A stretch of DNA of 39,884 nucleotides, taken from positions 1-39,884 of the forward strand of contig JAQUOA010000002.1 in NCBI GenBank assembly GCA_028749215.1, in the 5' to 3' direction. The stretch is from Bacteroidota bacterium. Lineage in GTDB: Bacteria; Bacteroidota; Ignavibacteria; UBA10030; UBA8401. Position numbers and translations under genes: made by a program. Positions within the stretch are counted from its first letter, which is position 1. Each line of letters begins with the position of its first letter. The notes below the pieces were generated by a model. That model saw only the letters and a program-made list of their open reading frames with translations. It made no database searches and was not told the origin of the DNA. This document shows, piece by piece, positions 7,851 through 30,289 of the stretch.

Positions 7851-7903
7851 AAAATCGCAATCTTGTATTGAACTTCTTTCACTTCACTATCTTAGGGAAG
7901 ACC

Positions 7904-8671: not shown

Positions 8672-8821
8672 CCAAGACATTCGTAATCTTGATGATGAAA
8701 GATGCTTAACTTGACTCTTGTCGATTAATCCTGCAATATACATTTGGTGTCTAAAAATACAGACGGGAATGATACAGTGAAGCGTGATGTTTATAGTACT
8801 AGAATGATGAGGAGGTTCGCC

Positions 8822-10485: not shown

Positions 10486-10507
10486 TATTTCTTGGAGAAG
10501 GATTTGT

Positions 10508-15120: not shown

Positions 15121-16209
15121 ATGAAACAATTTTTCAAACCCTCGGTTAACTGGCTTCTTATATTTATTCCACTCACCGTTGCGGCTGAATATTTTTTCCA
15201 TTCTTCGCCAACGGTGCTTTTTCTTTTCTCCTGTCTTTCAATCGTGCCGCTGGCGGGATGGCTTGGCAAAGCAACTGAACATCTCGCAGAAAAAACCGGC
15301 GAAGGGATCGGCGGTTTGTTGAACGCCACATTCGGCAACGCCGCAGAATTAATTATAGCGCTCATGGCGCTCAACAAAGGATTGTACGATGTTGTGAAGG
15401 CATCAATTACCGGCTCCATCATTGGCAACCTGCTTCTTGTGCTGGGTGCGGCATTTCTTGCCGGCGGAATAAAACACAAAGTACAGAGATTTAATCCCGT
15501 CGGTGCGCGCACCATGGGGACAGTGCTCACACTCGCTTCCATCGGGCTGATTGCGCCGGCGTTGTTTCACTATTTTGGCGGAAGCAATATAGCACACCGT
15601 GAATCAGATCTCAGTTTTGAGATTGCGGTCGTTCTGTTAATTACCTATCTGCTCAGCCTCCTTTTTTCTTTAAAGACTCATAAACAATTTTTTGTGGGAG
15701 AAGCGGCTGAAGCAGCCGAAGTGAATGAAGGAAAGCACGGCTTGTGGAGTACAAGAAAATCTTTAATGGTACTCGCCGGTGCAACATTGTTCATTGCGTG
15801 GATGAGCGAAATTCTCGTCGGTTCGGTTGAACTTGCCGCTCACGCCATGGGAATGACAAGCATCTTTGTCGGAGTGATTGTTGTAGCGATCATCGGCAAC
15901 GCAGCGGAACACAGCACCGCGATTATGGTAGCAATGAAAAACAGAATGGATCTGAGCGTTGGCATTGCGATCGGAAGCAGCGTACAAGTGGCATTGTTTG
16001 TTGCACCTGTGCTCGTATTTTTGAGCCGTATCGTTGGCCCGCGCCCGATGGATTTAGTGTTTACGCCGATCGAGATTCTTGCGATTGCGCTTGCGGCACT
16101 GATTACAGAGCAAATAGACAGCGACGGTGAAAGTAATTGGTTTGAAGGAGTCCAGCTTATTTCCGTCTATATTATTTTTGCGTTGGTTTTTTATTTTTTA
16201 CCGGCATAA
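15121..16209 (+). CDS. Ca2+/H+ antiporter (CaCA/CAX family)
   Basis: Two alpha-repeat signature motifs, GNAAELIIA and GNAAEHSTA, lie within about 11 hydrophobic segments. The start is uncertain: the ORF opens at GTG 15091 (1-nt overlap with the DinB stop), and ATG 15106 and ATG 15121 are alternatives. Confidence 0.85.
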   Translation: MKQFFKPSVNWLLIFIPLTVAAEYFFHSSPTVLFLFSCLSIVPLAGWLGKATEHLAEKTGEGIGGLLNATFGNAAELIIALMALNKGLYDVVKASITGSIIGNLLLVLGAAFLAGGIKHKVQRFNPVGARTMGTVLTLASIGLIAPALFHYFGGSNIAHRESDLSFEIAVVLLITYLLSLLFSLKTHKQFFVGEAAEAAEVNEGKHGLWSTRKSLMVLAGATLFIAWMSEILVGSVELAAHAMGMTSIFVGVIVVAIIGNAAEHSTAIMVAMKNRMDLSVGIAIGSSVQVALFVAPVLVFLSRIVGPRPMDLVFTPIEILAIALAALITEQIDSDGESNWFEGVQLISVYIIFALVFYFLPA

Positions 16210-16342
16210 ACAATTGTAAAGATAATCCAGCCTCTTTTCTCCGTAGCACTTCTGAACTTTTCAGATTTATTCTTGGAATTAGTACCATATCATCGTACCT
16301 TTCCACAGCCGCAAAATGCCTCACATGACCTTGCGAATGCCT

Positions 16343-18700
16343 ATGAAAAAACTGATACACTCTTTCCTTCTGATTGTTTTCTTTTTTTCCGCAGCATGTT
16401 CACAAGTGTTTCCTTTAAAAAGAGAAGCCCGTGGTGCATGGATCGCTACCGTTGCCAACATTGACTGGCCAAGTTCAAATTCAGCCTCTCCTGCAGCACA
16501 GCAAGCCCAACTGATTTCTATTCTAGATCAACTATCAGCCGCCGGAATTAATATTGCAATTTTTCAAATCCGCTCTGAATGTGACGCCATGTACCAATCT
16601 CCATATGATCCATGGTCGTACTGGTTGACAGGAAGCCAGGGGACTGCACCGAATCCATTGTGGGATCCTTTACAATTTGCTGTGGAAGAGGCACATAAGC
16701 GAGGAATGGAATTGCATGCATGGTTTAATCCATATAGAGTTGAGCGATCTGCCGGCAACTATGCAGCGGCGGCGACCCATGTTTCAAAAACACATCCGGA
16801 CTGGGTATTGCAGGTCGGCAGCGTAAAATTTTTAGATCCCGGGTTAAAGGAAGTTCGCGATTACGTTTCCAAGGTAATTTCCGATGTTGTGCGGCGGTAT
16901 GATATCGACGCTGCTCACATGGATGATTATTTTTATGTGCAAGGAGTTTCGACTCAAGACGACAGTACTTTTGCAAATTATCCTCGTGGATTTATGAATC
17001 GTGGAGATTGGCGGAGAGATAATGTCAATCTTCTCCTCAAGCAAGTCTATGACAGCATTCAAGTGATAAAGCCTTGGGTGAAGTGGGGAATCAGTCCAGC
17101 AGGAATTTGGAGGAATGGCGTTCCATCAGGAATTATCGGCAATGATAATTACAGCGTATTGTATTGTGATCCGGTTGCATGGATGGCGGGAAAATATATC
17201 GACTATCTTGCCCCACAGTTGTACTGGAGGATTGGAGGCAATCAAGATTTTACATTACTCCTTCCTTGGTGGAACTCAGTTTCAAACGGGATACAAATTA
17301 TTCCGGGGCTTGCCGCATACAGAATCAATACTTCCAGTTTTGGTCCGGCAGGTGAAATTGGTAATCAAATTAGGTTTGATCGTGCCGATGGTACAACAGT
17401 GGCAGGAAATTTTCTTTACACAACAAACAACATAACTGGCAATCTTGGCGGATTAACCGATTCGTTGAAAAACGATTTATACAAATATTCCGCGTTGGTT
17501 CCGCGAATTGTCGGGAAAGATTCTCTGGCTCCAAATCCTCCGCTCAACGCACATTATGGTCGTTTCGGAAATTCTCCCATTGCCGAATTGCAGTGGGATG
17601 TTCCATCTAAAGCATCAGACAATGATACGGCTTCGATGTATGTGATTTATCAAACAGCAACACCGACTGTAACACAAGCGGAGATTGATAATGCACAAAA
17701 CATTGCACGGCTGACGAGTCAGAAATTTTTCAATCCATTGCAATCAAAGAAAACGGAAAAGAATTTTGTTATTACCGCACTGGATAAAAATAACAACGAG
17801 AGCTCAGCAAGCACGGTTGTGTCAATTTCCGGCGTTCCTGTTCAACCCTTGTTAGCATATCCCGCAGATAATGCACACGATCAACTTTCAACAGTCAACG
17901 TCGGTTGGAATTATGCCGAAGGTTCGAGCGGCTATATTGTGCAGATAGCGTCTGATTCAAGTTTTACAACACCGCTGGTCACCACCGGCGCGTTTTCTGA
18001 TTCGACATGGCAAGCGGCAAATTTACCAGGGCAACAATACTATTACTGGAAAGTGAAAGGGACAAATCTTGTTGGCGACGGAGCATACTCTATTACCAGA
18101 AAATTTTTCACAGGAATCCCGGCAACGCCGATGTTATTATTTCCGGCGCATGCCTCACTCAACCTCGAGGTCGATAGTGTGAAATTTACATGGAACGCTG
18201 CCGGTGCATCACAGACGTATCGTTTTCAAATTTCCACAACAACAGATTTCATTGTCAATGTCCTGGACACGACGATGTTGGCTGATACGAATTTTACGGT
18301 TCGAAATCTGAAGTCATCCACGATCTACCGATGGAGGGTCAACGCAGCAAACGCCGTCGGCGCAAGTTTGTGGTCGCCTATTTTCGGATTTAAAACAAAA
18401 ACAGTTGTTTCGGCGGATGAGTTTGCTGAGGTGCCGATGAAATTTGAGTTGAGTCAGAATTATCCGAATCCGTTTAATCCGGAGACCAACATTCGCTTTT
18501 CGCTGACTGAAAGCAATTTCACCGTGCTGAAAATTTACAACGTGCTTGGAAGTGAAGTGGCAACATTGGTGAATGAATCCATGCCTGCAGGCACTTACAC
18601 GGTGCCGTTCCGTGCCGAGCAATTAGCAAGCGGAGTTTACATTTATCGCATAATTTCAGGCAATTTTTCCGAAACAAAAAAGATGGTTTTACAAAAGTAA
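16343..18700 (+). CDS. Secreted GHL10-type (glycosyl-hydrolase-like 10 / YngK-like) protein with two tandem Ig/FN3-like modules and a T9SS C-terminal sorting domain
   Basis: ATG 16343 gives signal peptide MKKLIHSFLLIVFFFSAACSQ. GHL10 hallmarks: REARGAWIATVANIDWPSS and ELHAWFNPYR. Tandem modules of about 93 aa lie at 17837-18115 and 18116-about 18400. The C-terminal sorting domain at 18443-18697 reads FELSQNYPNPFNPETNIRF...GVYIYRIISGNFSETKKMVLQK. Confidence 0.8.
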   Translation: MKKLIHSFLLIVFFFSAACSQVFPLKREARGAWIATVANIDWPSSNSASPAAQQAQLISILDQLSAAGINIAIFQIRSECDAMYQSPYDPWSYWLTGSQGTAPNPLWDPLQFAVEEAHKRGMELHAWFNPYRVERSAGNYAAAATHVSKTHPDWVLQVGSVKFLDPGLKEVRDYVSKVISDVVRRYDIDAAHMDDYFYVQGVSTQDDSTFANYPRGFMNRGDWRRDNVNLLLKQVYDSIQVIKPWVKWGISPAGIWRNGVPSGIIGNDNYSVLYCDPVAWMAGKYIDYLAPQLYWRIGGNQDFTLLLPWWNSVSNGIQIIPGLAAYRINTSSFGPAGEIGNQIRFDRADGTTVAGNFLYTTNNITGNLGGLTDSLKNDLYKYSALVPRIVGKDSLAPNPPLNAHYGRFGNSPIAELQWDVPSKASDNDTASMYVIYQTATPTVTQAEIDNAQNIARLTSQKFFNPLQSKKTEKNFVITALDKNNNESSASTVVSISGVPVQPLLAYPADNAHDQLSTVNVGWNYAEGSSGYIVQIASDSSFTTPLVTTGAFSDSTWQAANLPGQQYYYWKVKGTNLVGDGAYSITRKFFTGIPATPMLLFPAHASLNLEVDSVKFTWNAAGASQTYRFQISTTTDFIVNVLDTTMLADTNFTVRNLKSSTIYRWRVNAANAVGASLWSPIFGFKTKTVVSADEFAEVPMKFELSQNYPNPFNPETNIRFSLTESNFTVLKIYNVLGSEVATLVNESMPAGTYTVPFRAEQLASGVYIYRIISGNFSETKKMVLQK

Positions 18701-18905
18701 CAATGAATATTTATGCAACATCCTGAAATTTTTTCTGTTGTGTTATCATTAAATTTTTGTTACACTCATGTACTATTTTTATAGCTTTCTATTGTGCAGA
18801 AGGCGCTTTTCTACAAGTAACGATCCCACCCTGCTGAGTAGAAAGTACAACGATGATCATTGACCCTCGAAATCAACAATCCTTTTTGTTAAAGGAGATG
18901 AATCC

Positions 18906-21900
18906 GTGAAACGTATTGCTACTCTGTCTCTGCTTCTCAGCATTTTTCTGTGTGCATTTCTCATTGCCGGAACGACCGGCAAAATTTCCGGTATTGTCAC
19001 AAACGTGCAGACCGGCGAACGTCTGCTTGGCGTTAATGTGTTGATTGTTGGAACGACATCGGGTGCTTCAACCGATCCGGATGGTTTTTTTGCCATTGTG
19101 AATGTGCCTCCCGGAGAATATTCGGTTCGAGCATCATCACTTGGTTATACCGCTATTGTACAAACAAAAGTTCGCGTCATCGTCGATCAAACCACCGAAT
19201 TGAATTTTCGTTTAAATGAAGAAATTGTAAAAGGCGAAGAAGTTGTCGTCATTGCTCAGCGGCCGGTGGTGCAAAAAGATGTGGCAACAAGTGTGGCGAA
19301 TATCTCATCAAAAGAAATTGAAAGCCTTCCTGTCACGACAATCAGCGGCGTGGTTGGATTGCAGGCAGGCGTGCAGGCAGGGCTGGTCATCCGCGGGTCA
19401 AACAATGCTGACCAGACAGCATTTATTGTTGACGGGCTGACGCTGCGGGATGAACGAAACAATAAACCGTACTCCGCCATCAGCTTAAGTTCAGTTCAAG
19501 ATATACAAGTACAGACCGGAGGGTTCAATGCTGAGTACGGAAACATCCGATCCGGAGTGGTGAATGTGATCACGAAGGATGGAAGTCCGACGTTGTATAC
19601 ATTTTCCGCAACTGCGCGGTTGAGCCCGCCGACGGCAAAAAATTTCGGCGGTTCAATTTACAATTCTAATTCGTACTTCATGCGTCCTTTTCTAGACCCC
19701 GCCGTGGCATTTACGGGGACAGGAACAGGCACAGATCCAGGCGCGTGGGATAAGTGGACGCGTCAGCAGTACAGACCGTTTGTCGGTTGGAATGCAATCT
19801 CGCAAGCTTCACTTGCCGACAACGATCCAAGGAATGATTTAACTCCGGAAGCGGCGCAGCAATTATTTAAATACATGCATAGAAAACAAGGCGATATTAC
19901 AAAACCTGATTATGATGTTGATGCAGGTTTCGGCGGCCCCGTTCCATTCGTCAGCTCCATGCTTGGCAATCTTCGTTTCTTTGCATCGTACCGCCAGCAA
20001 AAAAGTATGTACATGATTCCTCTTTCACGCGAAGCGTACGAAGACTATAACGGTCAAGTCAAGTTCACTTCTGATATTACGACTACGCTCAAACTAGCCG
20101 TGCAGGGGATGATGGGTCAGCAGTTAGGGACAACGGATAATAATTCGGGTAATTCCGGATTGATGCAGACAGCAGGAGATATTGCGACAAGTTTAAATAA
20201 AGCCAACTATGGCGATCTTCAAATTTACACCAATGATTATTATGCTCCATCGACAGTAAAAATGACCAGCCTCGGAGGCAAGGTTACACAACTTCTTTCA
20301 GCAGAGACATTTTATGAAGCAAGCGTCAATTACGTAGGATTTAAGTACGACACCAATCCTGGCAGAGCTCGTGATACAACAAAGCGTGTTCTTTTTGGCA
20401 ACGGCTATTACGTTGATGAAGAACCATTCGGCTATATGCAGCAAAATAATGATTACTTCTTCACCCCAAGCTTTACCAACAAGTACGGTCAAAGCGGGTC
20501 GCGCGATACCAGCAGGATTTCTAACACCACGGTAAAAGTGGATTTTAACAGTCAGGTAAATAGATACAATCAGATTAAAACCGGTGTTGAACTTGTACTT
20601 TCCATGAATAACTCGAACTACGCATCGGTCAACAGCGTGAGCGGTTCCAAAACTGTTTCACAGTGGACCACCTATCCCTACCGCGCTTCACTGTATGCGC
20701 AGGATAAATTTGAATATGAGGGGATGGTAGCGAATTTTGGAGTCCGCATGGATGTCTCGAATCCGAACGGCGATTGGTATATTTATAACCCCTATGACAA
20801 TTCGCTGTTTGGCGGTCAGTCGTTAAATCTCGATAAGCTGTTGGTCCGCACACGCGTTGAAAAGAATGTCACATTCAGTCCCCGCCTTGGCATCGCATTC
20901 CCGATCACTGACTATGCAAAACTCTTTTTCAATTACGGCCATTTCCGTTCCATGCCTCAGCCGGAAGATTTGTTTTTGGTACGGCATGATCCGGTCAGTA
21001 AAAGTGTCTCCCGAATTGCCAACCCAAATAATCCTTTGCCAAAAACGATTGCGTACGAATTGGGGTATGAACACAGTCTCTTAGAGGAGTACCTCATTCG
21101 TGTTGTGGGATATTATAAAAATGTTTCAGATCAAATTACACAACTCACCGTGCTGGGATCAAAGGTTAATTACACGGTGTCGACTCCGAATTCATATGAA
21201 GATATTCGCGGATTTGAAGTAACACTTTCCCGCAACCGCGGTGAATGGATAACCGGATTTCTTAATTATACGTACATGGCACGTTCAACCGGCCGGTTCG
21301 GATTTCGCCAAATATCACAAAGCATTACCGATCAAAATAATTACGAGGCAATTCATACCGACGAACTATACCAAACAAAACCGGTTGCTCAACCGTTTGC
21401 CCGCCTGAGTGTCGATTTCTTTACGCCGGCAGACTATATGCAAAACGAAGTAGGAGTAGGGGGCGTAGGATTGTTAAACGATTGGCGATTGAATATGACA
21501 ACAAATTGGAGTTCGGGCGCTTACGATACATGGACAGGAAATGTAAGCAGTTCGCTTCCGGACGTGAGAAATAATGTTCAATGGAAAGACACGTATGGCG
21601 CCAATATCCGGTTGAGCAAAAACTTTAAATTTGGTGCCGCAAATGTCCAGCTGTTTGCCGACATCAATAATATTTTCAACATAAGAAATTTTACAGGATC
21701 GTCTGACGGCGGTTATGGATTTACGAGTGTTGATGATGAAAACAGCTATTGGCAATCGCTGCACTTACCGAAAGAAATTGTAGAAGATCGCTTTAACTAC
21801 ATTAACATTCCCGGCAGCGATCAACCGGGAGAGGTTCGAAAAGATGGTGCACCGTATGTTCACATAGAACCGGTCAAAACTCTCGCCGATGCAAATTATA

Positions 21901-22103
21901 TTGTTTCTACGGCAATTTATTGGGACAAGTCTACCGGGAGATATATGGAGAACAAGGGGAGCGGTTGGACCGAAGTGAGTTCATCTCGTATGAAAAAAAT
22001 TCTTGATGATAAATCATATATCGATATGCCTAACATGGATTTTCTGGTATTTCTAAATCCCCGCGATATTTTTTGGGGACTGAAAGTAACATTTGAATTT
22101 TAA
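18906..22103 (+). CDS. SusC-like TonB-dependent outer-membrane receptor (CarboxypepD_reg domain, plug and large barrel)
   Basis: GTG 18906 after AAAGGAG. Signal peptide, then a carboxypeptidase-regulatory-like domain (GKISGIVTNVQTGERLLGVNVLIVGTTSGASTDPDGFFAIVNVPPGEYSVRASSLGY). A TonB-box-like EEVVVIA is at 19236-19256. Plug motifs: VIRGSNNADQTAFIVDGL...VQTGGFNAEYGNIRSGVVNVITKDG. The barrel ends in a terminal Phe (LKVTFEF). Confidence 0.8.
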   Translation: MKRIATLSLLLSIFLCAFLIAGTTGKISGIVTNVQTGERLLGVNVLIVGTTSGASTDPDGFFAIVNVPPGEYSVRASSLGYTAIVQTKVRVIVDQTTELNFRLNEEIVKGEEVVVIAQRPVVQKDVATSVANISSKEIESLPVTTISGVVGLQAGVQAGLVIRGSNNADQTAFIVDGLTLRDERNNKPYSAISLSSVQDIQVQTGGFNAEYGNIRSGVVNVITKDGSPTLYTFSATARLSPPTAKNFGGSIYNSNSYFMRPFLDPAVAFTGTGTGTDPGAWDKWTRQQYRPFVGWNAISQASLADNDPRNDLTPEAAQQLFKYMHRKQGDITKPDYDVDAGFGGPVPFVSSMLGNLRFFASYRQQKSMYMIPLSREAYEDYNGQVKFTSDITTTLKLAVQGMMGQQLGTTDNNSGNSGLMQTAGDIATSLNKANYGDLQIYTNDYYAPSTVKMTSLGGKVTQLLSAETFYEASVNYVGFKYDTNPGRARDTTKRVLFGNGYYVDEEPFGYMQQNNDYFFTPSFTNKYGQSGSRDTSRISNTTVKVDFNSQVNRYNQIKTGVELVLSMNNSNYASVNSVSGSKTVSQWTTYPYRASLYAQDKFEYEGMVANFGVRMDVSNPNGDWYIYNPYDNSLFGGQSLNLDKLLVRTRVEKNVTFSPRLGIAFPITDYAKLFFNYGHFRSMPQPEDLFLVRHDPVSKSVSRIANPNNPLPKTIAYELGYEHSLLEEYLIRVVGYYKNVSDQITQLTVLGSKVNYTVSTPNSYEDIRGFEVTLSRNRGEWITGFLNYTYMARSTGRFGFRQISQSITDQNNYEAIHTDELYQTKPVAQPFARLSVDFFTPADYMQNEVGVGGVGLLNDWRLNMTTNWSSGAYDTWTGNVSSSLPDVRNNVQWKDTYGANIRLSKNFKFGAANVQLFADINNIFNIRNFTGSSDGGYGFTSVDDENSYWQSLHLPKEIVEDRFNYINIPGSDQPGEVRKDGAPYVHIEPVKTLADANYIVSTAIYWDKSTGRYMENKGSGWTEVSSSRMKKILDDKSYIDMPNMDFLVFLNPRDIFWGLKVTFEF

Positions 22104-22126
22104 GCAACGGTGATTATGAGGATACT

Positions 22127-24211
22127 ATGAATTATAAACGTTTCGTTGTTATTGCTGCGGTAATGCTTCCATCATTTGTAATTGCTCAAGAATCAAATAC
22201 ATACAAGTGGATGACAGTAGGATCACTTCATAATTTGTTTTCAAATTATGGCTCTGAAATAGAAACAGGAAGAACCGGAAAAACCGCCGATCAGGCGGAT
22301 GGATTGCGGTGGCCTGCCCTGTATCGTACGCAAGATATGCAGGCGGCAAAGGCCATTTGGATTGGGACAACAAATTATACCGATGCAAAGGGAACTTTTG
22401 TTCATAAAATAGTGCACGTTGGCCCGCGTCCAACCGCAGGCAGTTATGCCGGCGAAACTTTTCCTGTTCTTTTCAAAATGACCAGCAAGTACGATCCTCC
22501 ACTGGTATATGTTGACGGCGTGCAGACGTACAACACCTTGGTTGAAAATGATGACGTCGATCCCACAATGAAATGGGATCGAATGATTGATAATGTTGAC
22601 AACACGCCAATTGGTTTGACGATGCATAGAAAAATTATTGCCTTCGGACAGCCATACCATGACAATTACATCGTGTACGATTACACCTTTACCAATACCG
22701 GATTAATTGACGATAAGGGAACCAAACGGGCAAATGCAACCTTGAACAATGTGTACGTCTATTTTTTAAATCGGTATGGAATCAATAGGGATGTACAGCC
22801 GGTCATTGGAGATCCTGTCGCGTATGGGAAAAATTTAGTGACTGATTTCCGCGGCGATACGACGAACCCCGGTCCGGCAAAATATTTTTCGACCAATACC
22901 GATAATAACGATCTGCGTGTTGGATTTGCTTGGCATGGGTATTATCCGGGATTCACCGGAGGATATGATAATATTGGGGGACCAATATTTAAACAGGCCA
23001 CAGGACACGTTGCCGGCGATACCGTTGGAAGATTGGGTGCGTACCAATTTGTAGGATGGGCAACGCTCCACGCAGACAAATCTCCAAGCGATACCTCAGA
23101 TGATACTAAGCAGCCGTCAACAACTTCGTACGAAGGATCGGATGGACAATATGTAAGTGCCGGAAGTATTGACCAGTATAATCCGGCTGCCATGGACGGG
23201 CAATGGGCGATGATCACCAAAGGCCATGTAATACCTCGCCATGCCGATCTATTGACTCCAACAACTGGTGATCCCTCTTTAGGTAATTCAGGCGGTCAAT
23301 CAATGGCAGTTGGTTACGGTCCTTACACTATCGCACCATCGGAGAGTATTCATATTGTTGTCGCCGAGCTTGCAGCTGGTTTATCCCGTGATGCATCGAT
23401 CCAAATTGGAAGAGCCTTCAAAGCAAGTTCGTCTGCACCAATTACGTTTAATGGAGTTACAAAATCTAAAAATGATTGGGTGTTTACAGGAAAAGATTCA
23501 CTGTTTCAATCGGTGAGACGAGCGCTTGCGAATTACCAAAGCGGCTGGAATATTTCTCAACCGCCTCCGCCTCCAACAACTGTCAATATCTTCAGCAGAG
23601 CAAATAAAATCCATATGGAATGGTTGGTTCCAAATGATCCTAAAATTGACGGATGGGAAATATGGCGGGCTTCTGCACAGTACGACAGCACCTATTATAA
23701 AATTTGGGAAGGCCCCGCTAGTGCGACCTCATACGATGATACCTTGGGCAGATTTGATGTTGCGTACTATTATTACATAGCGTCAATCGGTAAAGCGTCG
23801 GATAATACCGGTGTTGGAAACACGCCGCTTGGCAGATTAACGAGCAGTCGGTATTATACTCAGACGTACACCCCCGCTTATCGCCGGTTAGGTGCTTCAT
23901 TGGCGCTGGTGAAATCTAATATCAGGATTGTACCGAATCCGTATAACCTGGGAGCCGATGCGCGAAATTTATTATTTCCCGGTCAGCAGGATAAAATTGT
24001 GTTCAAAAATATTCCTGGAATTTGTACCATAAAAATTTATTCCGAATTGGGTGAATTGATCAAAACGCTCGATCATACCAACGAAACAGGGTCACAGGAT
24101 TATAATTTAACGACATCGTCTAATCAAATTATTGTGAGCGGCATTTACATTGCCGTGATCGAGACACCCAAAGGTGAACGAAGCATCCATAAATTTGTTG
24201 TCATCCGGTAA
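22127..24211 (+). CDS. Secreted 694-aa protein of unknown function with an FN3-like module and a divergent T9SS-sorting-domain-like C-terminus
   Basis: Signal peptide MNYKRFVVIAAVMLPSFVIAQ with no lipobox. I recognise no family in the roughly 470-aa N-terminal region. A PPPPP linker leads into an FN3-like module (IHMEWLVPNDPKIDGWEIWRA...YYYYIASIG). The C-terminal beta-sandwich at 23921-24208 reads IRIVPNPYN...CTIKIYSELGELIKTL...SGIYIAVIETPKGERSIHKFVVIR. Confidence 0.6.
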   Translation: MNYKRFVVIAAVMLPSFVIAQESNTYKWMTVGSLHNLFSNYGSEIETGRTGKTADQADGLRWPALYRTQDMQAAKAIWIGTTNYTDAKGTFVHKIVHVGPRPTAGSYAGETFPVLFKMTSKYDPPLVYVDGVQTYNTLVENDDVDPTMKWDRMIDNVDNTPIGLTMHRKIIAFGQPYHDNYIVYDYTFTNTGLIDDKGTKRANATLNNVYVYFLNRYGINRDVQPVIGDPVAYGKNLVTDFRGDTTNPGPAKYFSTNTDNNDLRVGFAWHGYYPGFTGGYDNIGGPIFKQATGHVAGDTVGRLGAYQFVGWATLHADKSPSDTSDDTKQPSTTSYEGSDGQYVSAGSIDQYNPAAMDGQWAMITKGHVIPRHADLLTPTTGDPSLGNSGGQSMAVGYGPYTIAPSESIHIVVAELAAGLSRDASIQIGRAFKASSSAPITFNGVTKSKNDWVFTGKDSLFQSVRRALANYQSGWNISQPPPPPTTVNIFSRANKIHMEWLVPNDPKIDGWEIWRASAQYDSTYYKIWEGPASATSYDDTLGRFDVAYYYYIASIGKASDNTGVGNTPLGRLTSSRYYTQTYTPAYRRLGASLALVKSNIRIVPNPYNLGADARNLLFPGQQDKIVFKNIPGICTIKIYSELGELIKTLDHTNETGSQDYNLTTSSNQIIVSGIYIAVIETPKGERSIHKFVVIR

Positions 24212-24229
24212 AAAAGTTTGGACTTGCGT

Positions 24230-24844
24230 ATGAAAAATTTACTCGTCGTATTATTTCTTGCAGGAATCAGCCTCTTTTGTTCTTCCTGTGTCAAATCAAC
24301 TTCCTCGGACAAATATGATGCTGTGTGGAAACCGTATTCCAGTACGATATGGGCCAAGCAATCGGCAGGCATCACAAATTTTGCCGCGGCCGATGGGGGC
24401 TGTAATTTCGATGCCACCATTACCACCGCCAGCATAGCCGATACAGTATGGCTTATTCCGACCATGTACAATATTTCAAATATCGAATCTGGGAAAAATC
24501 CGCTGTTGACCATATCGGCGAGTGTATCTTCAAATCCGGATTCAATGAAACTTGACAGTGCCCATTATACGTATTTTCAATTTGGAAGACTCGACGGAAC
24601 GATACAAACATTCGGAAAGGACAGCGTACGCACGCAGCCGAGATCGTTTGCTTCAAATACTCTGTATTCATACGCCCCCAGTATCCGTCCTGATTCTTGC
24701 AGCAGGCAAATGTATATACAAATAATCTTACACTGGAACAGCTACTCTGGCCCGGCGGTGCTTGATACGTTGAAATCGGCAAAAATATCTGTTCAGTTGA
24801 AAAATATTTCGTTTGCTGTTTCCGGTATCGATATTCTGAAATAA
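24230..24844 (+). CDS. Small putative lipoprotein, unknown function
   Basis: MKNLLVVLFLAGISLFCSSC has a signal peptide with Cys near the cleavage region, though the lipobox is imperfect. It is tightly packed between neighbours, with gaps of 18 nt and 24 nt. I recognise no family. Confidence 0.5.
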   Translation: MKNLLVVLFLAGISLFCSSCVKSTSSDKYDAVWKPYSSTIWAKQSAGITNFAAADGGCNFDATITTASIADTVWLIPTMYNISNIESGKNPLLTISASVSSNPDSMKLDSAHYTYFQFGRLDGTIQTFGKDSVRTQPRSFASNTLYSYAPSIRPDSCSRQMYIQIILHWNSYSGPAVLDTLKSAKISVQLKNISFAVSGIDILK

Positions 24845-24868
24845 GTGTCTCTCAATAGGCAGGTTACT

Positions 24869-25867
24869 ATGAAAAAATATTGTACTCTTTTCCTTCTCGC
24901 GGGCGTTACAGCCTTGGCTGTCGCGCAAAATAACAAACTTGCTCAAACGGGTTTGAAATTTTTAAACGTTGCAACCGATCCCCGGGCTGTGGCAATGGGA
25001 GAAGCAGTGACGTCGGTGGAAGGAACATCGTCGGCATTGTTCTTCAACCCTGCAGGATTAGCGCGTTTGCACTCATCGGCACACGCAGAATTTGGAAGCA
25101 CGCAATGGATCGCCGATATCAAACAGATCTACGGCAGTGTGGCGATCGCAACACCGAACAATGATTACGGGGTGTTCGGCATTACATTTCAATCCGTGGA
25201 TTATGGTGCCATACCGCGAACAGTCTTTGCCGATAATGCCGACGGCTATATGGACATGGGTACATTTTCTCCAGCAGCGTTATCATTAGGGATCGGTTAC
25301 GCCCGATCGTTAAGCGATAAGTTTTCTGTGGGGGGACGCGTAGCGTACAATATGCAAGACTTGGGAGAAGGTTTCAACACTATTGATGCCAACAGAAATC
25401 CTATTGCAACAAAGAATAGAGTGGAAGTACTGTCATTTGATTTTGGGATGTTCTATAAAACAGGTTTTAAGAGTTTAAATTTTGCCATGAGCGTAAAAAA
25501 TTTTTCCAAAGAGGTCAAATATCAGCGCGAAGGTTTTCAACTGCCGTTGATGTTTCGCATTGGTGTTTCGGTCAATGCCATGGATTTTATTTCAGAAGAA
25601 CAGACTGCTGATCCGTTCTTAGTTTCTGTTGATGCCAACAATGCACGCGATTATCCGGAAACCGTTAACCTTGGCGGTGAATATGTTTTTATGAAAACAT
25701 TCTCGCTTCGGGCAGGATATATGTTTGGTTATGATGAACATAATTTTACGGCGGGGATTGGTGTTCAACAAACGATTGAAGGATTCGGCGTAGGATTGGA
25801 TTACGCCTACACGCCCTATGGAATTTTTGGAACCGTCAATCGATTTGCAATACAAATGTATTTCTAA
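24869..25867 (+). CDS. PorV/PorQ-family-like outer-membrane beta-barrel
   Basis: ATG 24869 gives signal peptide MKKYCTLFLLAGVTALAVAQ. The N-terminal motif GLKFLNVATDPRAVAMGEAVTSVEGTSSALFFNPAGLARL is PorV/PorQ-like. The protein is about 330 aa and ends with a terminal aromatic (FAIQMYF). Confidence 0.65.
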   Translation: MKKYCTLFLLAGVTALAVAQNNKLAQTGLKFLNVATDPRAVAMGEAVTSVEGTSSALFFNPAGLARLHSSAHAEFGSTQWIADIKQIYGSVAIATPNNDYGVFGITFQSVDYGAIPRTVFADNADGYMDMGTFSPAALSLGIGYARSLSDKFSVGGRVAYNMQDLGEGFNTIDANRNPIATKNRVEVLSFDFGMFYKTGFKSLNFAMSVKNFSKEVKYQREGFQLPLMFRIGVSVNAMDFISEEQTADPFLVSVDANNARDYPETVNLGGEYVFMKTFSLRAGYMFGYDEHNFTAGIGVQQTIEGFGVGLDYAYTPYGIFGTVNRFAIQMYF

Positions 25868-25890
25868 TTTAATCTTGCGAAGATAATTGT

Positions 25891-27135
25891 ATGAAAACAC
25901 TACGACTTTTTACGGCACTTCTTGGGGTGCTTCTTCTTGCGATCTCAAGTTGTACAAAAGATGCACCGTCAAGTGTGTATAATCCTAATACTAGTTTTGG
26001 CGGGCCGCCGAATGTAACCACGATAGTACCTGAAAATGCTCCGTATATTTTAGGCGGCTTAACAACCATTCTCATCAATGGAACAAATTTTGGGACTGAT
26101 ACATCAAAGGTTCATGTCTTCTTTAATAGCACCAAAGTATCACTGTCTTCGATAACGGCTACGCAAATTAAACTTTTAGCTCCTTTGATTATCCAAGACT
26201 CAATTCGAGTCAGGGTTTCAATTGATGGTTCAGATAAGTTTTCCGACCTTAAATATGTCAGCATCCGGTCTGTCATGACTCTTATCAAAGATATCGATAC
26301 GGCAAAACAGGTACCGAATGCAATCACATTCAACAAGAACGGAGATTTATTTGTTTCGGTCGTGACGAGCGCAGGGGTAAGTGACGGTATTTATCAATTG
26401 TCATCGGGTGGAGGAAGTTTGCAGTTTGCGACCAAGGGAACCGAGTCATATTTTAGCGGATTAAAATTCCGAGGGGATTCTCTCTATGCAGCGCGGCGTG
26501 CAAACAGACTCGTTTCACGGAACACTGTGAACGGAAGTATGAATATCTTTACAGCATCATTTCCAGCGGCAGCTTTGCCTATTAATATTGAAGATTTTGA
26601 TTATGATCAGCAAAGAGTTATGTGGGCAGCCGGAAATACATCGGATGGTGGAATATTGAGAATAGATTCACTAAAAAACGTCAAAAAATTCCCCTTCCCA
26701 GGAATCATTCATTCTGTGCGCGTCTTTAATGGCGCGCTCTACGTTAGCAATGAATCATCAACCGATTCAACGAAGGCGGTGTACCAAATTCCAATGAACA
26801 CTGCTGACACCAGCTTGGGAACAGCTGTAAAATATTTCGATCTTTCTGCGACAGTTGGAAATAAAACGAATATAGTATTTGGTATTACATTTGACAGTCA
26901 AGGAAATTTATACGCTGGGACAGATGCACCTGCCGGAATTTATGTTGTTGCAACGGATAAATCCGTACAGCCTTTGTACAATAGTTTGGTTGGCCCAAAT
27001 TGTCAATATCTGGCATGGGGAAACGATTCATATTTGTACGCTGTTCGAGTGAAAGCATCATCAACAAGCCGGCCGACAGGATTATTTAAAATTGATATGT
27101 TAGGAAAAGTCACCGCACCATATTACGGTCAATAA
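25891..27135 (+). CDS. Lipoprotein with an IPT/TIG-like Ig domain and a beta-propeller (NHL/SMP-30-like) body
   Basis: Signal peptide plus lipobox LLLAISSC. The IPT/TIG-like segment reads VTTIVPENAPYILGGLTTILINGTNFGTDTSKVHVFFNSTKVSLSSITATQIKLLAP. Repeated blade-like motifs include AITFNKNGDLFVS and GITFDSQGNLYAGTD. Confidence 0.6.
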   Translation: MKTLRLFTALLGVLLLAISSCTKDAPSSVYNPNTSFGGPPNVTTIVPENAPYILGGLTTILINGTNFGTDTSKVHVFFNSTKVSLSSITATQIKLLAPLIIQDSIRVRVSIDGSDKFSDLKYVSIRSVMTLIKDIDTAKQVPNAITFNKNGDLFVSVVTSAGVSDGIYQLSSGGGSLQFATKGTESYFSGLKFRGDSLYAARRANRLVSRNTVNGSMNIFTASFPAAALPINIEDFDYDQQRVMWAAGNTSDGGILRIDSLKNVKKFPFPGIIHSVRVFNGALYVSNESSTDSTKAVYQIPMNTADTSLGTAVKYFDLSATVGNKTNIVFGITFDSQGNLYAGTDAPAGIYVVATDKSVQPLYNSLVGPNCQYLAWGNDSYLYAVRVKASSTSRPTGLFKIDMLGKVTAPYYGQ

Positions 27136-27189
27136 GAAACAAAGCGTCACATAATCCACATATAAGTTAATAATAACAGGAGGTAACAA

Positions 27190-28539
27190 ATGAAAAAAAT
27201 TTTTCTTCTTGCTGCAGTTTTTCTGATAGCCGTGTCAGTAGCATCAGCGCAGTATGTGTACGACTCTACGTTCACCAAGAATGCGGCTGATAGTCTATTG
27301 ATTGTTTCAGGAAATGGACTTCATGGTGTAGCGGTAGATCCAACTGGTAATGTGTGGACCGTCAATTACAATACATACCTTAAAGGAGACAGCATAACAG
27401 ATCCGTCAACAAATGTAACAAAAGCTTTTTTGCGTCTGAATATTTGGAAACCGGATGGAACACCAGTATCTTTTTCACCTTTAAAAATACTAAGCGGAGC
27501 TGGAGTAACTGATACGTTGTATAAAGGAAATAGTGGACGGGGACTTTCTACTACTCCTGACGGTAATATCTTGTTTTGTTGGTTCAACAACATATATCTT
27601 CTAAACTATAAAACCGGTGCTGTAATTAAAAAAATTGTGGCAACGTATACCAATGGTACCACAGCCGCAGCTGCTGATCTTTTGGGAGATATATTTGTTG
27701 GTCCAGTTTTTAATAATCAAGGCCCTCTGCAAATGTTTGACAATACCGGTGCCAAGTTAGCTAATGTTACTGATACCACTCGATTTTTTTCTCGCACACT
27801 TACTTGTTCAAGAGCGGGAGATAAAGTCTATTACGCAGGATACACTTCACACAGTATTATTCGATATACGGGTGACCCATTAGGAGGGTTTACAACAATT
27901 GATACATTACTGAAAGGCTTTGATTGTGAAGCTATTGCTCGCAGTGGAAAAAGTGATTTAATTTGGGCATCAGCCGGTTCAGGCAATGATTTACCGAACA
28001 GATATGGGAACTTAAAAACTTCTTATAGTTCTCATACTTGGTATTTGTGGAATCCTACTACCAATGCAATCAAAGACAGTATAAAATGGAATGGGTTGAA
28101 TAGTTTTACAACTGCAGATAGTGCTGCTCTTCGTCCGAGAGGTGTATCAACTTCAACCAATGGAGATACAGTGTATGTTGTAATGTTTGGGGCAAAAGCT
28201 GGAATGTATAATATTCAACGCTTTGTAGGACCAAAGACATCATCGGTTCAGCGTGAGGATGGTATTGTTGCAACAAATTATACTCTTGCTCAAAACTATC
28301 CCAATCCGTTCAACCCGTCAACTAAGATTAAGTTTACATTGGCAAATTCTGCATCTGTCAGCTTAAAAGTATATGACGTGTTAGGCAAAGAAGTGGCAAC
28401 ACTTGCTACCGGTAATTATACAGCCGGTGCATACTCCGTAGATTTTGATGCAAAAAATCTTGCTGCCGGCATGTATATCTACACTTTAACGACATCCAAT
28501 GGTTTCTCACAAACCAAAAAGATGCTGTTGTTGAAGTAA
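27190..28539 (+). CDS. Secreted beta-propeller protein with a canonical T9SS C-terminal sorting domain
   Basis: RBS AGGAGG upstream and signal peptide MKKIFLLAAVFLIAVSVASAQ. Blade-like motifs: GLHGVAVDPTGNVWTVNY and GLSTTPDGNILFCWFN. The sorting domain at 28279-28536 reads YTLAQNYPNPFNPSTKIKF...GMYIYTLTTSNGFSQTKKMLLLK. Confidence 0.7.
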   Translation: MKKIFLLAAVFLIAVSVASAQYVYDSTFTKNAADSLLIVSGNGLHGVAVDPTGNVWTVNYNTYLKGDSITDPSTNVTKAFLRLNIWKPDGTPVSFSPLKILSGAGVTDTLYKGNSGRGLSTTPDGNILFCWFNNIYLLNYKTGAVIKKIVATYTNGTTAAAADLLGDIFVGPVFNNQGPLQMFDNTGAKLANVTDTTRFFSRTLTCSRAGDKVYYAGYTSHSIIRYTGDPLGGFTTIDTLLKGFDCEAIARSGKSDLIWASAGSGNDLPNRYGNLKTSYSSHTWYLWNPTTNAIKDSIKWNGLNSFTTADSAALRPRGVSTSTNGDTVYVVMFGAKAGMYNIQRFVGPKTSSVQREDGIVATNYTLAQNYPNPFNPSTKIKFTLANSASVSLKVYDVLGKEVATLATGNYTAGAYSVDFDAKNLAAGMYIYTLTTSNGFSQTKKMLLLK

Positions 28540-28562
28540 TTTTACCCAAAGGAAAATCTTTG

Positions 28563-28589
28563 AAAACCCCGCACAATGCGGGGTTTTTT
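28563..28589 (+). terminator. Rho-independent terminator closing the six-gene operon
   Basis: AAAA, then a 7-bp GC-rich stem CCCCGCA (28567-28573) pairing with TGCGGGG (28577-28583) around a 3-nt loop, then T6 (28584-28589). Confidence 0.8.
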
Positions 28590-28680
28590 ATTTTTATTGT
28601 AATCTAATATCGTGCTGCTTGAGACGTGTATATTTATTTCACCGATGAATTGAAAGCCGAATATAGACAGAGTCACAATT

Positions 28681-28715
28681 TAAACCTCACAGGTTTCTAA
28701 AACCTGTGAGGTTTA
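28681..28715. repeat. Perfect 16-bp inverted repeat with a 3-nt spacer (stand-alone hairpin or palindromic site)
   Basis: TAAACCTCACAGGTTT (28681-28696), CTA, AAACCTGTGAGGTTTA (28700-28715). Every position pairs. It lies in the 274-nt intergenic region between the terminator and hldA. Confidence 0.85.
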
Positions 28716-28753
28716 TGTACAAATAAATTGAGTTGTGATGCTCATTACTTGAA

Positions 28754-28782
28754 TTGATACTCGCTCATTTATTGGCTATATT
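28754..28782 (+). promoter_or_regulatory. Candidate sigma70-type promoter for hldA (TTGATA-N17-TATATT)
   Basis: TTGATA at 28754-28759, a 17-nt spacer, and TATATT at 28777-28782, 31 nt upstream of ATG 28814. The context is AT-rich, so a chance match is possible, and promoter consensus in this lineage is not known to me. Confidence 0.3.
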
Positions 28783-28813
28783 TTATTATTGTAGCATAAA
28801 AAATATAGGAACG

Positions 28814-29800
28814 ATGACCACTTTTACACCTCAACGAATAGACCAATTACTCAAAACTGTAAAAAATAAACGCGTTGCTATCATCGGCGATGTGATGATT
28901 GACCGCTATGTGTGGGGGACCGTTTCACGCATTTCACCTGAAGCACCGGTTCCCGTAGTGGAAGTAGAGAGCGAATCGACGCGGCTGGGGGGAGCGGCAA
29001 ACGTTGCCAATAACATTACATCTCTTGGCGCAAAGGCATTGTTAATTGGTGTTGTGGGAAATGATAATAACGGAAAAGAGCTGCGTCTGTATCTTGAGAA
29101 AGAAAATACTTCTTCAGAAGGTATCGTCACTGATCCGTCGCGTCCAACGACCGTAAAGACTCGTGTTATTGCACACAGCCAGCATGTTGTGCGAATTGAC
29201 AGTGAAGAGAAAAAAGATATCGGCGGTGAAATCCAAAACAAGATTATCAGCATCCTGGAAAAAAATATCAGTGCCATAGACGGAATCATCATTGAAGATT
29301 ACAATAAAGGGGTGGTGGTGAAAGAGTTGATCCACCGGATAACGGAGCTTGCACGAAAAACAAATACCGTCATCACCATCGACCCGAAGTTTAATAATTT
29401 CTTTGAGTACAAAAATGTGACGGTGTTCAAACCGAATAAAAAAGAGACAGAAGAAGCGCTGGGCCGGCGATTGCAAACAGACGATGATGTTGTTGCCGCT
29501 GGGAAAACACTTCTCGAAAAACTGAATGCTCAAAATGTCCTCCTTACCCGCGGCGAAAAAGGAATGAGCGTGTTCGAAAAATCAGGCAGTGTCACACATA
29601 TTCCTACCCGCGCTCGTCACGTCGCGGATGTTTCCGGCGCGGGTGATACCGTTATTGCCACGCTCACGGCCATGCTCGCAGGGGGTGCTACCATGCAGGA
29701 AGCTGCATCGCTGGCAAATTATGCCGGCGGTATTGTCTGCGGTGAAGTTGGTATCGTTCCGATTGATCCTGCCATCTTACGTTCAACCATTCTCGGGTAA
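28814..29800 (+). CDS. hldA: D-glycero-beta-D-manno-heptose-7-phosphate kinase (RfaE domain I, stand-alone)
   Basis: VAIIGDVMIDRYVWGTVSRISPEAPVPVVEVESESTRLGGAANVANNITSLG is the RfaE/HldE kinase N-terminus. The pfkB-type C-terminal motif DVSGAGDTVIATL is present. ATG 28814 is preferred over the ORF-track start at 28754. Confidence 0.85.
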   Translation: MTTFTPQRIDQLLKTVKNKRVAIIGDVMIDRYVWGTVSRISPEAPVPVVEVESESTRLGGAANVANNITSLGAKALLIGVVGNDNNGKELRLYLEKENTSSEGIVTDPSRPTTVKTRVIAHSQHVVRIDSEEKKDIGGEIQNKIISILEKNISAIDGIIIEDYNKGVVVKELIHRITELARKTNTVITIDPKFNNFFEYKNVTVFKPNKKETEEALGRRLQTDDDVVAAGKTLLEKLNAQNVLLTRGEKGMSVFEKSGSVTHIPTRARHVADVSGAGDTVIATLTAMLAGGATMQEAASLANYAGGIVCGEVGIVPIDPAILRSTILG

Positions 29801-29803
29801 AAA

Positions 29804-30289
29804 ATGGGCAATGTATATACTCATTCGGAATTAGTTGAAAAAAGAAATCAATGGAAGCAGCAAGGTAAAACCGTCGTGTTTACTAATGGTGTGTTTGACA
29901 TTCTTCACCGCGGGCATGTCGAATATTTGACCTCGGCAAAAAAACTTGGCCATATTCTTGTCGTTGGCGTAAACACCGATGCTTCGGTGAAACGAATTAA
30001 AGGCCCGCTTCGTCCAATAGTGAATGAACATGACCGCGCATTTGTTCTCTCGCAGCTTGTCTGTGTTGATGCGGTATGTTTATTTACTGAAGATACCCCG
30101 CTCGAACTTATTTCGTCAATTGTCCCCGATGTGCTGGTAAAAGGAGCCGACTATACAAAAGAAACCATTGTCGGCAGAGATGTTGTTGAGCGCGCCGGAG
30201 GTACAGTGCGCACGATTGAATTTGTGCCTGATCGTTCTACATCAAACATTGTGGATACTATCGTACGCCGGTTTTCAAAAAGTAAGTAA
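29804..30289 (+). CDS. hldC: D-glycero-beta-D-manno-heptose-1-phosphate adenylyltransferase (RfaE domain II, stand-alone)
   Basis: Cytidylyltransferase-fold motifs VVFTNGVFDILHRGHVEYL and VVGVNTDASVKRIKGPLRPIVNEHDRAFVLSQL. The gene starts 3 nt after hldA. Confidence 0.88.
   Translation: MGNVYTHSELVEKRNQWKQQGKTVVFTNGVFDILHRGHVEYLTSAKKLGHILVVGVNTDASVKRIKGPLRPIVNEHDRAFVLSQLVCVDAVCLFTEDTPLELISSIVPDVLVKGADYTKETIVGRDVVERAGGTVRTIEFVPDRSTSNIVDTIVRRFSKSK

Follow-up and report, generated by a model that had tools for sequence, protein, structure and literature searches.

SusCD systems explain glycan uptake in Bacteroidia. For type IX secretion systems (T9SS), a review proposes that cognate PorV-like barrels protect and hold the sorting domains of their cargo, as in the case of PorZ with PorQ and of SprF with type B cargo (PMC10202324). 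In Rhodothermus marinus, a comparable set of genes is printed, as unexplained "hypothetical" genes, in the locus for alginate utilisation (PMC9530828, Fig. 2). There, a TonB-dependent receptor (2805 nt) is followed by hypA (2181 nt), hypB (1056 nt) and hypC (1398 nt), of which hypA encodes a T9SS type A sorting-domain protein and hypB a PorV/PorQ family member, with alginate lyases as neighbours (PMC9530828). Here we analyse the same arrangement in a 39,884-nucleotide stretch of a Bacteroidota genome (contig JAQUOA010000002.1, positions 1 to 39,884; hereafter the window), in whose listing of open reading frames (ORFs) six co-directional genes on the + strand span positions 18906-28539. They encode a TonB-dependent transporter (TBDT, gene 1), a secreted protein of 694 aa (gene 2), a small putative lipoprotein (gene 3), a PorV/PorQ-family barrel (gene 4), a candidate lipoprotein with IPT/TIG and propeller domains (gene 5) and an NHL-type propeller protein (gene 6). 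An earlier note on this DNA, written from the sequence alone, had suggested a SusD-free transporter whose surface partners are delivered by the T9SS and held by a PorV-like anchor, and had regarded this architecture as uncharacterised. Our search of the literature on modules combining a TBDT, a sorting-domain protein and a PorV-like barrel, on the T9SS in these phyla and on a "peptidoglycan utilisation locus" found no characterisation, although the arrangement had already been printed, unanalysed, in R. marinus. On balance, we lean towards the view that the locus is a SusD-free outer-membrane uptake module of non-Bacteroidia members of the Fibrobacteres-Chlorobi-Bacteroidetes (FCB) group, which here would most likely serve for the peptidoglycan of dead bacteria.

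Relatives of the locus were collected with a pattern scan over one genome per GTDB species, which gave at least 600 matched stretches, 587 of the 600 listed being confirmed relatives. The best 80 loci were taken with 10-kb flanks and compared by tblastn with the window proteins, and ORFs were clustered over 81 non-duplicate loci. In every one of the best 80 loci, as far as the contigs reach, gene 1 is followed on the same strand by genes 2, 4 and 5, in this order, and usually by gene 6. Compared with the window proteins, genes 1 and 2 are 44-79% identical, gene 4 42-77%, gene 5 22-59% and gene 6 26-69%. ORF clustering recovers gene 2 in 80 of the 81 loci, whereas genes 1, 5, 6 and 3 are recovered in 75, 71, 59 and 9 loci, respectively, and gene 4 in at least 59 (an undercount caused by the ORF caller). 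The carriers comprise Ignavibacteriales, Melioribacteraceae (including the cultured Stygiobacter electus 09-Me), Rhodothermales, KSB1 (Zhuqueibacter), Caldithrix/Calditrichota and Kryptoniota. Since the same order recurs in 80 independent loci of several phylum-level lineages, the arrangement goes beyond what chance would produce. Thus the gene order, whose loss in relatives would have spoken against the proposal of the earlier note, is kept across Ignavibacteria, Rhodothermales, KSB1, Calditrichota and Kryptoniota. The six-gene operon described in that note stands as far as the succession of TBDT, 694-aa protein, PorV-like barrel, TIG lipoprotein and NHL protein is concerned, but the conserved core consists of five genes, the lipoprotein of about 204 aa being lineage-specific.

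The core also behaves as a unit. In Rhodothermales it lies among unrelated genes (toxin, restriction-modification, MurB, FtsH) and is therefore self-contained. In KSB1, Caldithrix and Kryptoniota a second, diverged copy is found, in which the genes for the TBDT, the gene-2-like protein, the PorV-like barrel and the TIG lipoprotein are still together, the PorV-like gene standing sometimes in front (among loci L001, L013, L020, L023, L024 and L054). Tandem second copies, 33-49% identical to the first, occur in these six loci and in L016 (e.g., L001:14736-22008); such tandem copies of the whole module imply that it was duplicated as a unit. Three contigs with an Ignavibacteria-type module (L007, L014 and L081) are labelled Synechococcus sp. 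UW140, Acidobacteriota and Syntrophomonadaceae; they are probably mis-binned contigs or mislabelled metagenome-assembled genomes.

Gene 1 encodes a signal peptide, a carboxypeptidase-regulatory-like N-terminal extension (CarbopepD_reg_2, PF13715: 64.9 bits, residues 27-115), the TonB-box-like motif EEVVVIA, a plug (PF07715: 34.7 bits against a cut-off of 23.9, residues 123-214) and a large barrel. The motif is part of the segment GEEVVVIAQRP between extension and plug, in which E112, A117 and P120 are invariant among the orthologues, and it falls in a linker (residues 107-119) that has low confidence or is disordered in the AlphaFold2 model. A profile of 25 orthologues matches the plug regions of PqqU and YncD in the PDB and also the isolated SusC N-terminal domain structure 9hfj. 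These matches cover only the extension and the plug; the barrel gave no PDB sequence match, either with the single protein or with the 25-sequence profile. The structure was compared as a model built from 30 sequences (pLDDT 76.3, pTM 0.70), for which Foldseek against the PDB returned FusA (E=4.6e-21) ahead of PqqU, Cir, FepA and HasR, together with SusC 5fq6_B (7e-19) and RagA (2e-18), all with E=1e-17 to 5e-21 and a probability of 1.00; classical TBDTs rank at least as high as SusC. This confirms by fold that gene 1 is a true TonB-dependent transporter. On the SusC/RagA model TIGR04056, gene 1 reaches 58.8 bits against a cut-off of 368, and the match is limited to residues 26-239 (model positions 2-219 of 981). 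Because the score is far below the cut-off and concerns the N-terminus only, gene 1 is not a member of the SusC/RagA family; it is a generic TBDT with a SusC-style layout of extension, TonB-box-like motif and plug. Hence, of the SusC-like TBDT announced in the earlier note, the transporter and its SusC-style extension are retained while the family assignment is dropped; for the rest, the domain calls made there for the six genes agree with the profile scans.

Gene 2 begins with a signal peptide and a beta super-sandwich of about 450 aa, in which there are a few helices. A proline linker and an FN3 domain come next, and the C-terminus is a beta-sandwich sorting domain (TIGR04183, residues 620-692), whose 26.5 bits exceed the cut-off of 23 only marginally. 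The protein has no match in Pfam and none by sequence in the PDB. Its AlphaFold2 model (pLDDT 79.4, pTM 0.81) gave partial and weak Foldseek matches (TM ~0.25) to the N-terminal sandwiches of GH94 phosphorylase, cyclic-glucan-synthase and dextran dextrinase, besides generic FN3 domains; the FN3 plus sorting-domain region aligns with PorZ (5m11). With both sequence searches blank and the Foldseek matches weak and partial, no enzyme class is assignable to gene 2, and an alignment of 37 distant relatives is too gappy (3012 columns) to define catalytic residues. In other words, the 694-aa protein did not turn out to be a known enzyme, an outcome that the earlier note had considered. Its homologues exceed 1225 and are nearly all labelled "hypothetical"; at the level of 50%-identity clusters, the family numbers 675 at E<=1e-30 and 5000 at E<=1e-10. 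The N-terminal sandwich is also a mobile extracellular module, present in proteins of 1100-1600 aa with canonical sorting domains. For instance, it is fused to a BNR/Sortilin propeller in proteins P0335, P0345 and P0350 and to beta-helix/PMP repeats in P0391, P0400, P0417 and P0460; where the context was inspected (P0335, P0400), the fusion genes stand alone.

Gene 4 matches the PorV/PorQ family model NF033709 with 178.2 bits against a cut-off of 90, over positions 1-325 of 326, and the PDB structure of PorV (6h3i_F) with E=4.7e-6. The equivalog models are all missed: PorV (NF033710) is scored with 75.6 bits against 250, PorQ (NF033711) with 78.1 against 220 and PorV2 with 47.5 against 325. 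By these scores, gene 4 is a predicted PorV-family barrel orthologous to neither PorV nor PorQ. It lies directly 3′ of gene 2 in every locus that extends far enough, and the presence of a PorV paralogue in the operon, read earlier from the sequence, is thereby upheld throughout the module. The possibility that gene 4 is a FadL-like barrel associated with the BAM complex (BamG) was ruled out, as the protein scores with the PorV family; similarity to BamG belongs to another ORF of the window (10241-11971, see below).

The sorting domain of gene 2 sets it apart from the other cargo. A gapped alignment with the canonical domain of gene 6 has 24% identity, and for this reason we assign the gene 2 domain to a divergent subclass of T9SS type A. 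In L013 (21-2648), a protein of 875 aa that is otherwise unrelated has nothing but this domain in common with gene 2: the two are 36% identical over 102 aa, a region which includes a characteristic insertion and the motif CTI(K/R)IY. A second, diverged PorV-like gene lies directly 3′ of the genes for 875-aa-type proteins in 5/5 loci, and in two longer contigs (L084 and L085) this family is located between a TBDT and a PorV-like gene. Likewise, divergent homologues of gene 2 that keep the special sorting domain also keep TBDT and PorV-like neighbours (L086, with 27% identity, and L090), whereas homologues of its N-terminal domain with canonical sorting domains have neither neighbour (L088 and L089). 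Among the ORFs with canonical sorting domains within the fetched loci, only 9 of 131 adjoin a PorV-like gene. These comparisons show that the PorV-like gene tracks the special sorting-domain subclass rather than sorting domains in general, which is the pattern predicted by a cognate, dedicated carrier or anchor.

The 875-aa-type proteins belong to a third paralogous type of module, located upstream of the core in L013 (21-3662), L027, L037, L073 and L082 and also found in L084 and L085. It encodes a protein of 660-875 aa, which apart from the special sorting domain bears no relation to gene 2, and a PorV-like barrel with 27-31% identity to gene 4; a GHL10 gene follows the PorV-like gene in 4/5 loci (all but L013). 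A database search with the 102-aa special sorting domain returned short gene fragments only, of which the two on long contigs (L084 and L085) were informative. On these contigs of about 100 kb the sorting-domain gene is split into short called genes (L084:4853-8522 and L085:4979-8408), which suggests assembly frameshift errors rather than real small genes; split genes in such assemblies account for the short "proteins" obtained with the sorting domain as sole query.

As to the remaining genes, gene 3 has no family match in the Pfam or NCBIfam scans. It is an accessory gene specific to the lineage, with homologues in no more than the 9 closest loci, where they invariably separate gene 2 from gene 4. 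Gene 5 carries a TIG domain (41.8 bits) and the lipobox ISSC, and its sole PDB sequence match is the uncharacterised 409-aa protein 3hrp_A (E=3.2e-4 over the TIG region). Gene 6 combines an NHL repeat with a canonical sorting domain (Por_Secre_tail, 41.4 bits; TIGR04183, 45 bits). With the SusD models PF07980, PF12771 and PF14322, none of the six proteins gives a match at E<=0.01, and no SusD Pfam family occurs in the gene tables of those relative loci whose tables were inspected, in agreement with the missing SusD reported earlier. On the other hand, T9SS tethering does not take the place of lipidation, as had been supposed, given that the TIG-propeller lipoprotein is part of the conserved core. 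Neither the 39.9-kb window nor any of the 22-kb loci contains T9SS core genes; the three sorting-domain proteins hint at a T9SS in this genome only indirectly.

Indications of the substrate come from the neighbouring genes. The gene directly upstream of the transporter (gene 0) encodes a GHL10 domain (PF02638, 201.9 bits), an fn3 domain (28.3 bits) and a canonical type A sorting domain (Por_Secre_tail, 42.1 bits; TIGR04183, 43.7 bits), and it matches the structure of Cwp19 (5oq2) with E=2.2e-86 and 294 bits over 350 residues. Cwp19 of Clostridioides difficile is a GHL10 lytic transglycosylase that cuts the glycan strands of peptidoglycan (PMC6016235), and the GHL10 protein DigH/YddW of E. coli is a hydrolase specific for denuded peptidoglycan glycans (PMC12288456). 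A GHL10 homologue is found within 10 kb of the core in 40 of the 81 loci. Other genes recur near the core as well: an Amidase_3 domain (N-acetylmuramic acid (MurNAc)-L-Ala amidase) fused to Big_5 and a sorting domain (9 loci), a NagX-like membrane acetyltransferase (198 bits; 8 loci), an MR_MLE enzyme closest to the models for N-acetyl-D-Glu racemase and L-Ala-D/L-Glu epimerase (6 loci), NlpC/P60 with SH3 (5 loci), the exo-muramidase NamZ (3 loci) and a BcrAD_BadFG kinase-like gene. Overall, 45 of the 81 loci, and 29 of the 46 loci with full flanks, have one or more genes for peptidoglycan or amino sugars within 10 kb. Given their T9SS sorting domains, the GHL10 and amidase enzymes are expected to work beyond the outer membrane, on foreign peptidoglycan. 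The upstream GHL10 gene appears to belong functionally to the locus and points to peptidoglycan, a substrate that the earlier note had left out of consideration, and these secreted enzymes, predicted from their domains to cleave glycans and amide bonds, lend moderate support to the scavenging of necromass. The support is only moderate because the core has no domain specific for peptidoglycan and many loci have uninformative neighbours.

Several points weigh against peptidoglycan uptake by a T9SS-fed transporter. No domain that could be recognised as specific for peptidoglycan is present in the five-gene core; no peptidoglycan-related gene lies within 10 kb of the module in Rhodothermales and in some close relatives; and the GHL10 family is large but has just two members that have been characterised, both of which cleave peptidoglycan glycans. 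The fold matches of the gene 2 model are weak and say no more than "carbohydrate-enzyme accessory-like sandwich". The comparison of sorting-domain subclass with gene neighbourhood rests on few independent families. Finally, conservation does not single out the sorting domain of gene 2 as one that is retained: its mean identity (60%) is similar to that of the domains of gene 6 (58%) and gene 0 (48%).

The first and third of these points, together with the loci devoid of informative neighbours, would also suit an alternative which we regard as rather unlikely, namely that the uptake architecture is the same but serves another glycan or N-acetylglucosamine (GlcNAc) polymer (chitin-like, exopolysaccharide or glycoprotein glycans), the GHL10 enzyme acting here on something other than peptidoglycan. 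Indeed, the design is neutral with respect to substrate, as a version of it stands in the R. marinus alginate locus, the NagX-like and BcrAD_BadFG-type genes fit a general use of amino sugars, and the BNR/Sortilin propellers and beta-helices fused to the gene 2 domain are general glycan-type modules. However, the sorting-domain MurNAc-L-Ala amidase, NamZ, NlpC/P60-SH3 and the L-Ala-D/L-Glu epimerase-like enzyme are peptidoglycan-specific and recurrent, and the match of the window GHL10 protein to Cwp19 is very strong.

A different objection concerns the barrel itself. Gene 4 could be only an export carrier or a FadL-type channel, while the gene 2 protein would be released, or anchored to lipopolysaccharide (LPS), by the PorU sortase and would form no lid or partner on the transporter; the genes would then stand together because a secreted binding protein or enzyme is co-regulated with its importer. 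We consider this unlikely. It is true that PorV is described for most cargo as a shuttle or carrier, not as a permanent anchor, that the domains of genes 6 and 0 are canonical and these proteins presumably rely on the general PorV, and that the N-terminal domain of gene 2 occurs also in stand-alone secreted proteins far from any TBDT. Nevertheless, the special sorting domain is paired strictly 1:1 with a PorV-like gene and a TBDT in three paralogous families, duplications keep the TBDT, gene 2 and the PorV-like gene together, and about 20 residues are invariant in the gene 2 sorting domain. It is very improbable that the module serves the maintenance of the cell's own envelope (for example turnover, shedding or re-uptake of wall or surface layer, or outer-membrane organisation) instead of foraging. 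Although the core is highly conserved (~45-50% identity across phyla), is often single-copy among housekeeping genes in Rhodothermales, and Cwp19 and DigH act on the wall of their producer, the GHL10 and amidase enzymes are directed by their T9SS sorting domains beyond the outer membrane and not to the cell's own periplasmic sacculus, in 4 loci the module is flanked by response regulators and Y_Y_Y sensor kinases of the sort known from polysaccharide utilisation loci, and a paralogous module, alike by annotation and order, is embedded in the catabolic alginate locus.

From the gene content, the folds, the synteny and the observed tie between sorting-domain subclass and PorV-like gene, we infer the following scheme, which is conditional in its physical complexes, its sorting-domain retention, its direction of transport and its substrate. 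Gene 1 would be the TonB-energised transporter. The gene 2 protein would be exported by the T9SS, and its beta super-sandwich and FN3 domain would capture the substrate for the transporter. It would be kept at the surface by its unusual sorting domain, which would stay bound to the gene 4 barrel, much as PorZ is kept by PorQ. The TIG-propeller lipoprotein (gene 5) and the NHL propeller (gene 6) may add surface binding or processing. The substrate would most likely be peptidoglycan: T9SS-secreted GHL10, elsewhere also the MurNAc-L-Ala amidase, would cut sacculi outside the cell, and the fragments would be imported by the transporter and then processed by the NamZ, NlpC/P60, L-Ala-D/L-Glu epimerase-like and NagX-like proteins encoded nearby. 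In its general outline, the earlier proposal of T9SS-delivered surface partners on a SusD-free transporter with a PorV-like anchor came through every comparative test that was run, but the SusC family, the six-gene core and the replacement of lipidation have to be given up. A more far-reaching version, which we put forward tentatively and consider doubtful, is that of a new phylum-spanning uptake machine, in which the TBDT is capped or fed by a T9SS protein permanently docked, through a private subclass of sorting domain, to a dedicated PorV-family barrel. This would stand in for SusD in Ignavibacteria, Rhodothermia, KSB1, Calditrichota and Kryptoniota, and the family in the window, the most widespread one, would be devoted to harvesting the peptidoglycan of dead bacteria.

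The module is a concrete candidate for the equivalent of SusCD in the sister lineages that dominate sediments, hot springs, sludge and soils. It is present in hundreds of species-level genomes, including the cultured and partly tractable Rhodothermus, Melioribacter and Stygiobacter, and through it orphan PorV paralogues, together with one distinct subclass among the T9SS sorting domains, would acquire a function. If the proposal is true, the role of the T9SS would extend from secretion and gliding to the assembly of import machines. Should the link to peptidoglycan hold, the module would represent a dedicated route of necromass recycling, a large and poorly resolved flux of carbon and nitrogen, and would provide a genomic marker for it.

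The features of the locus are listed in Table 1. The gaps between successive genes from 1 to 6 measure 23, 6-18, 0-24, 23 and 54 nt, the ranges depending on the choice of start codon, so that the co-directional genes, short gaps and 205-nt upstream gap noticed earlier are borne out by the ORF coordinates. The promoter and leader are probably located in this 205-nt region. Positions 18784-18804 of it can form a weak hairpin, and 8 nt 5′ of the GTG start of gene 1 there is a GGAG as ribosome-binding site. A terminator scan of positions 16000-29500 identified the one at the end of the unit as the sole strong site, with only weak hairpins elsewhere, again as noticed before. Rfam gave zero matches in the whole window or in 18600-19000; therefore, there is no riboswitch ahead of the transporter gene that could name the substrate.

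Table 1. Positions of the uptake module and its flanking elements in the window.
Feature	Position	Strand	Remarks
GHL10-FN3-sorting-domain gene (gene 0)	16316-18700	+	794 aa; directly upstream of transporter gene
205-nt intergenic region, 5′ of transporter gene	18701-18905	+	after stop at 18700
Gene 1, TonB-dependent transporter	18906-22103	+	1065 aa
Gene 2, secreted protein of unnamed family	22127-24211	+	694 aa
Gene 3, small putative lipoprotein	24218-24844	+	208 aa from TTG; ~204 aa from ATG 24230
Gene 4, PorV/PorQ-family 14-strand-type outer-membrane barrel	24845-25867	+	340 aa; likely start ATG 24869
Gene 5, IPT/TIG + beta-propeller candidate surface lipoprotein	25891-27135	+	414 aa
Gene 6, beta-propeller protein of NHL type, canonical T9SS type A sorting domain	27190-28539	+	449 aa
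Intrinsic terminator closing the unit	28562-28588	+	12-bp stem, 6 G-C pairs, T-run

Other genes of the window lie around the module. Directly 3′ of the terminator, a pfkB-family kinase and a cytidylyltransferase-like gene (28754-30289, +) resemble a split heptose kinase/adenylyltransferase of the HldE type, and 6 close relatives likewise have a pfkB-family kinase downstream of the module; the pair is probably LPS-related and outside the module. About 5.6 kb upstream of the module, an orphan regulator of 394 aa (12099-13283, +) has a C-terminal response-regulator receiver domain and an N-terminal region without confident family. Still further upstream, four co-directional ORFs occupy positions 7835-11971 (+). 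Three of them (278, 358 and 222 aa) have no family, the 278-aa ORF having just a sub-threshold match to YjbH, while the fourth (10241-11971) encodes a 576-aa barrel of the FadL/Toluene_X type, with weak scores for BamG (50.9 bits) and for the N-terminal part of PorV_fam (39.2 bits). This run of ORFs may represent another outer-membrane complex.

Unlike Cwp19 and DigH, the GHL10 domain of the window is fused to FN3 and to a T9SS sorting domain, and the enzyme should therefore act outside the outer membrane of its producer, on foreign peptidoglycan. With SprB/SprF of Flavobacterium johnsoniae, the module has in common the principle of a private barrel encoded beside a cargo with a special sorting domain; however, gene 4 belongs to PorV/PorQ and not to PorP/SprF, the sorting domain is a divergent type A and not a type B, the cargo is not an adhesin, and the locus is centred on a TBDT. 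For PorQ-PorZ and PorV-PorU of the T9SS attachment complex of Porphyromonas gingivalis, too, the proposal is that a surface protein is held by a PorV-family barrel by means of an uncleaved type A domain (PMC10202324). By inference from this likeness, gene 4 would work as PorQ does with PorZ, yet its partner is neither PorZ nor PorU, the pair is encoded and duplicated with a TBDT, and its role would be nutrient uptake instead of cargo attachment.

The comparison with the SusC/SusD loci and "utilisomes" (BT2261-2264, levan, dextran) concerns the module as a whole. Both have a large TBDT in which a carboxypeptidase-regulatory-like extension precedes a TonB box or, in the module, a TonB-box-like motif. 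Surface proteins are encoded alongside, among them a TIG/propeller lipoprotein, and the neighbours comprise secreted glycan-cleaving enzymes and, in some loci, Y_Y_Y sensor kinases. In contrast, the module has no SusD and its transporter scores below the TIGR04056 cut-off; the slot after the transporter is filled by a non-lipidated T9SS cargo with a super-sandwich fold and then by a PorV-family barrel. Hence the module can be likened to a SusCD locus but is neither SusC by family nor a susC/susD pair. The distribution differs as well, SusC/SusD being found in Bacteroidia and the module in Ignavibacteria, Rhodothermales, KSB1, Calditrichota and Kryptoniota.

Finally, the alginate locus of R. 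marinus presents the same gene order beside substrate-specific enzymes, a likeness of annotation and order. Its transporter is smaller and its neighbours are alginate lyases, whereas the neighbour in the window is a predicted peptidoglycan enzyme. This locus ties the design of TBDT, sorting-domain protein and PorV-like barrel to polysaccharide uptake and, by analogy, indicates that polysaccharide utilisation loci outside Bacteroidia may generally have this design as their uptake core, different substrates being served by paralogous families, of which the one in the window is the most widespread.

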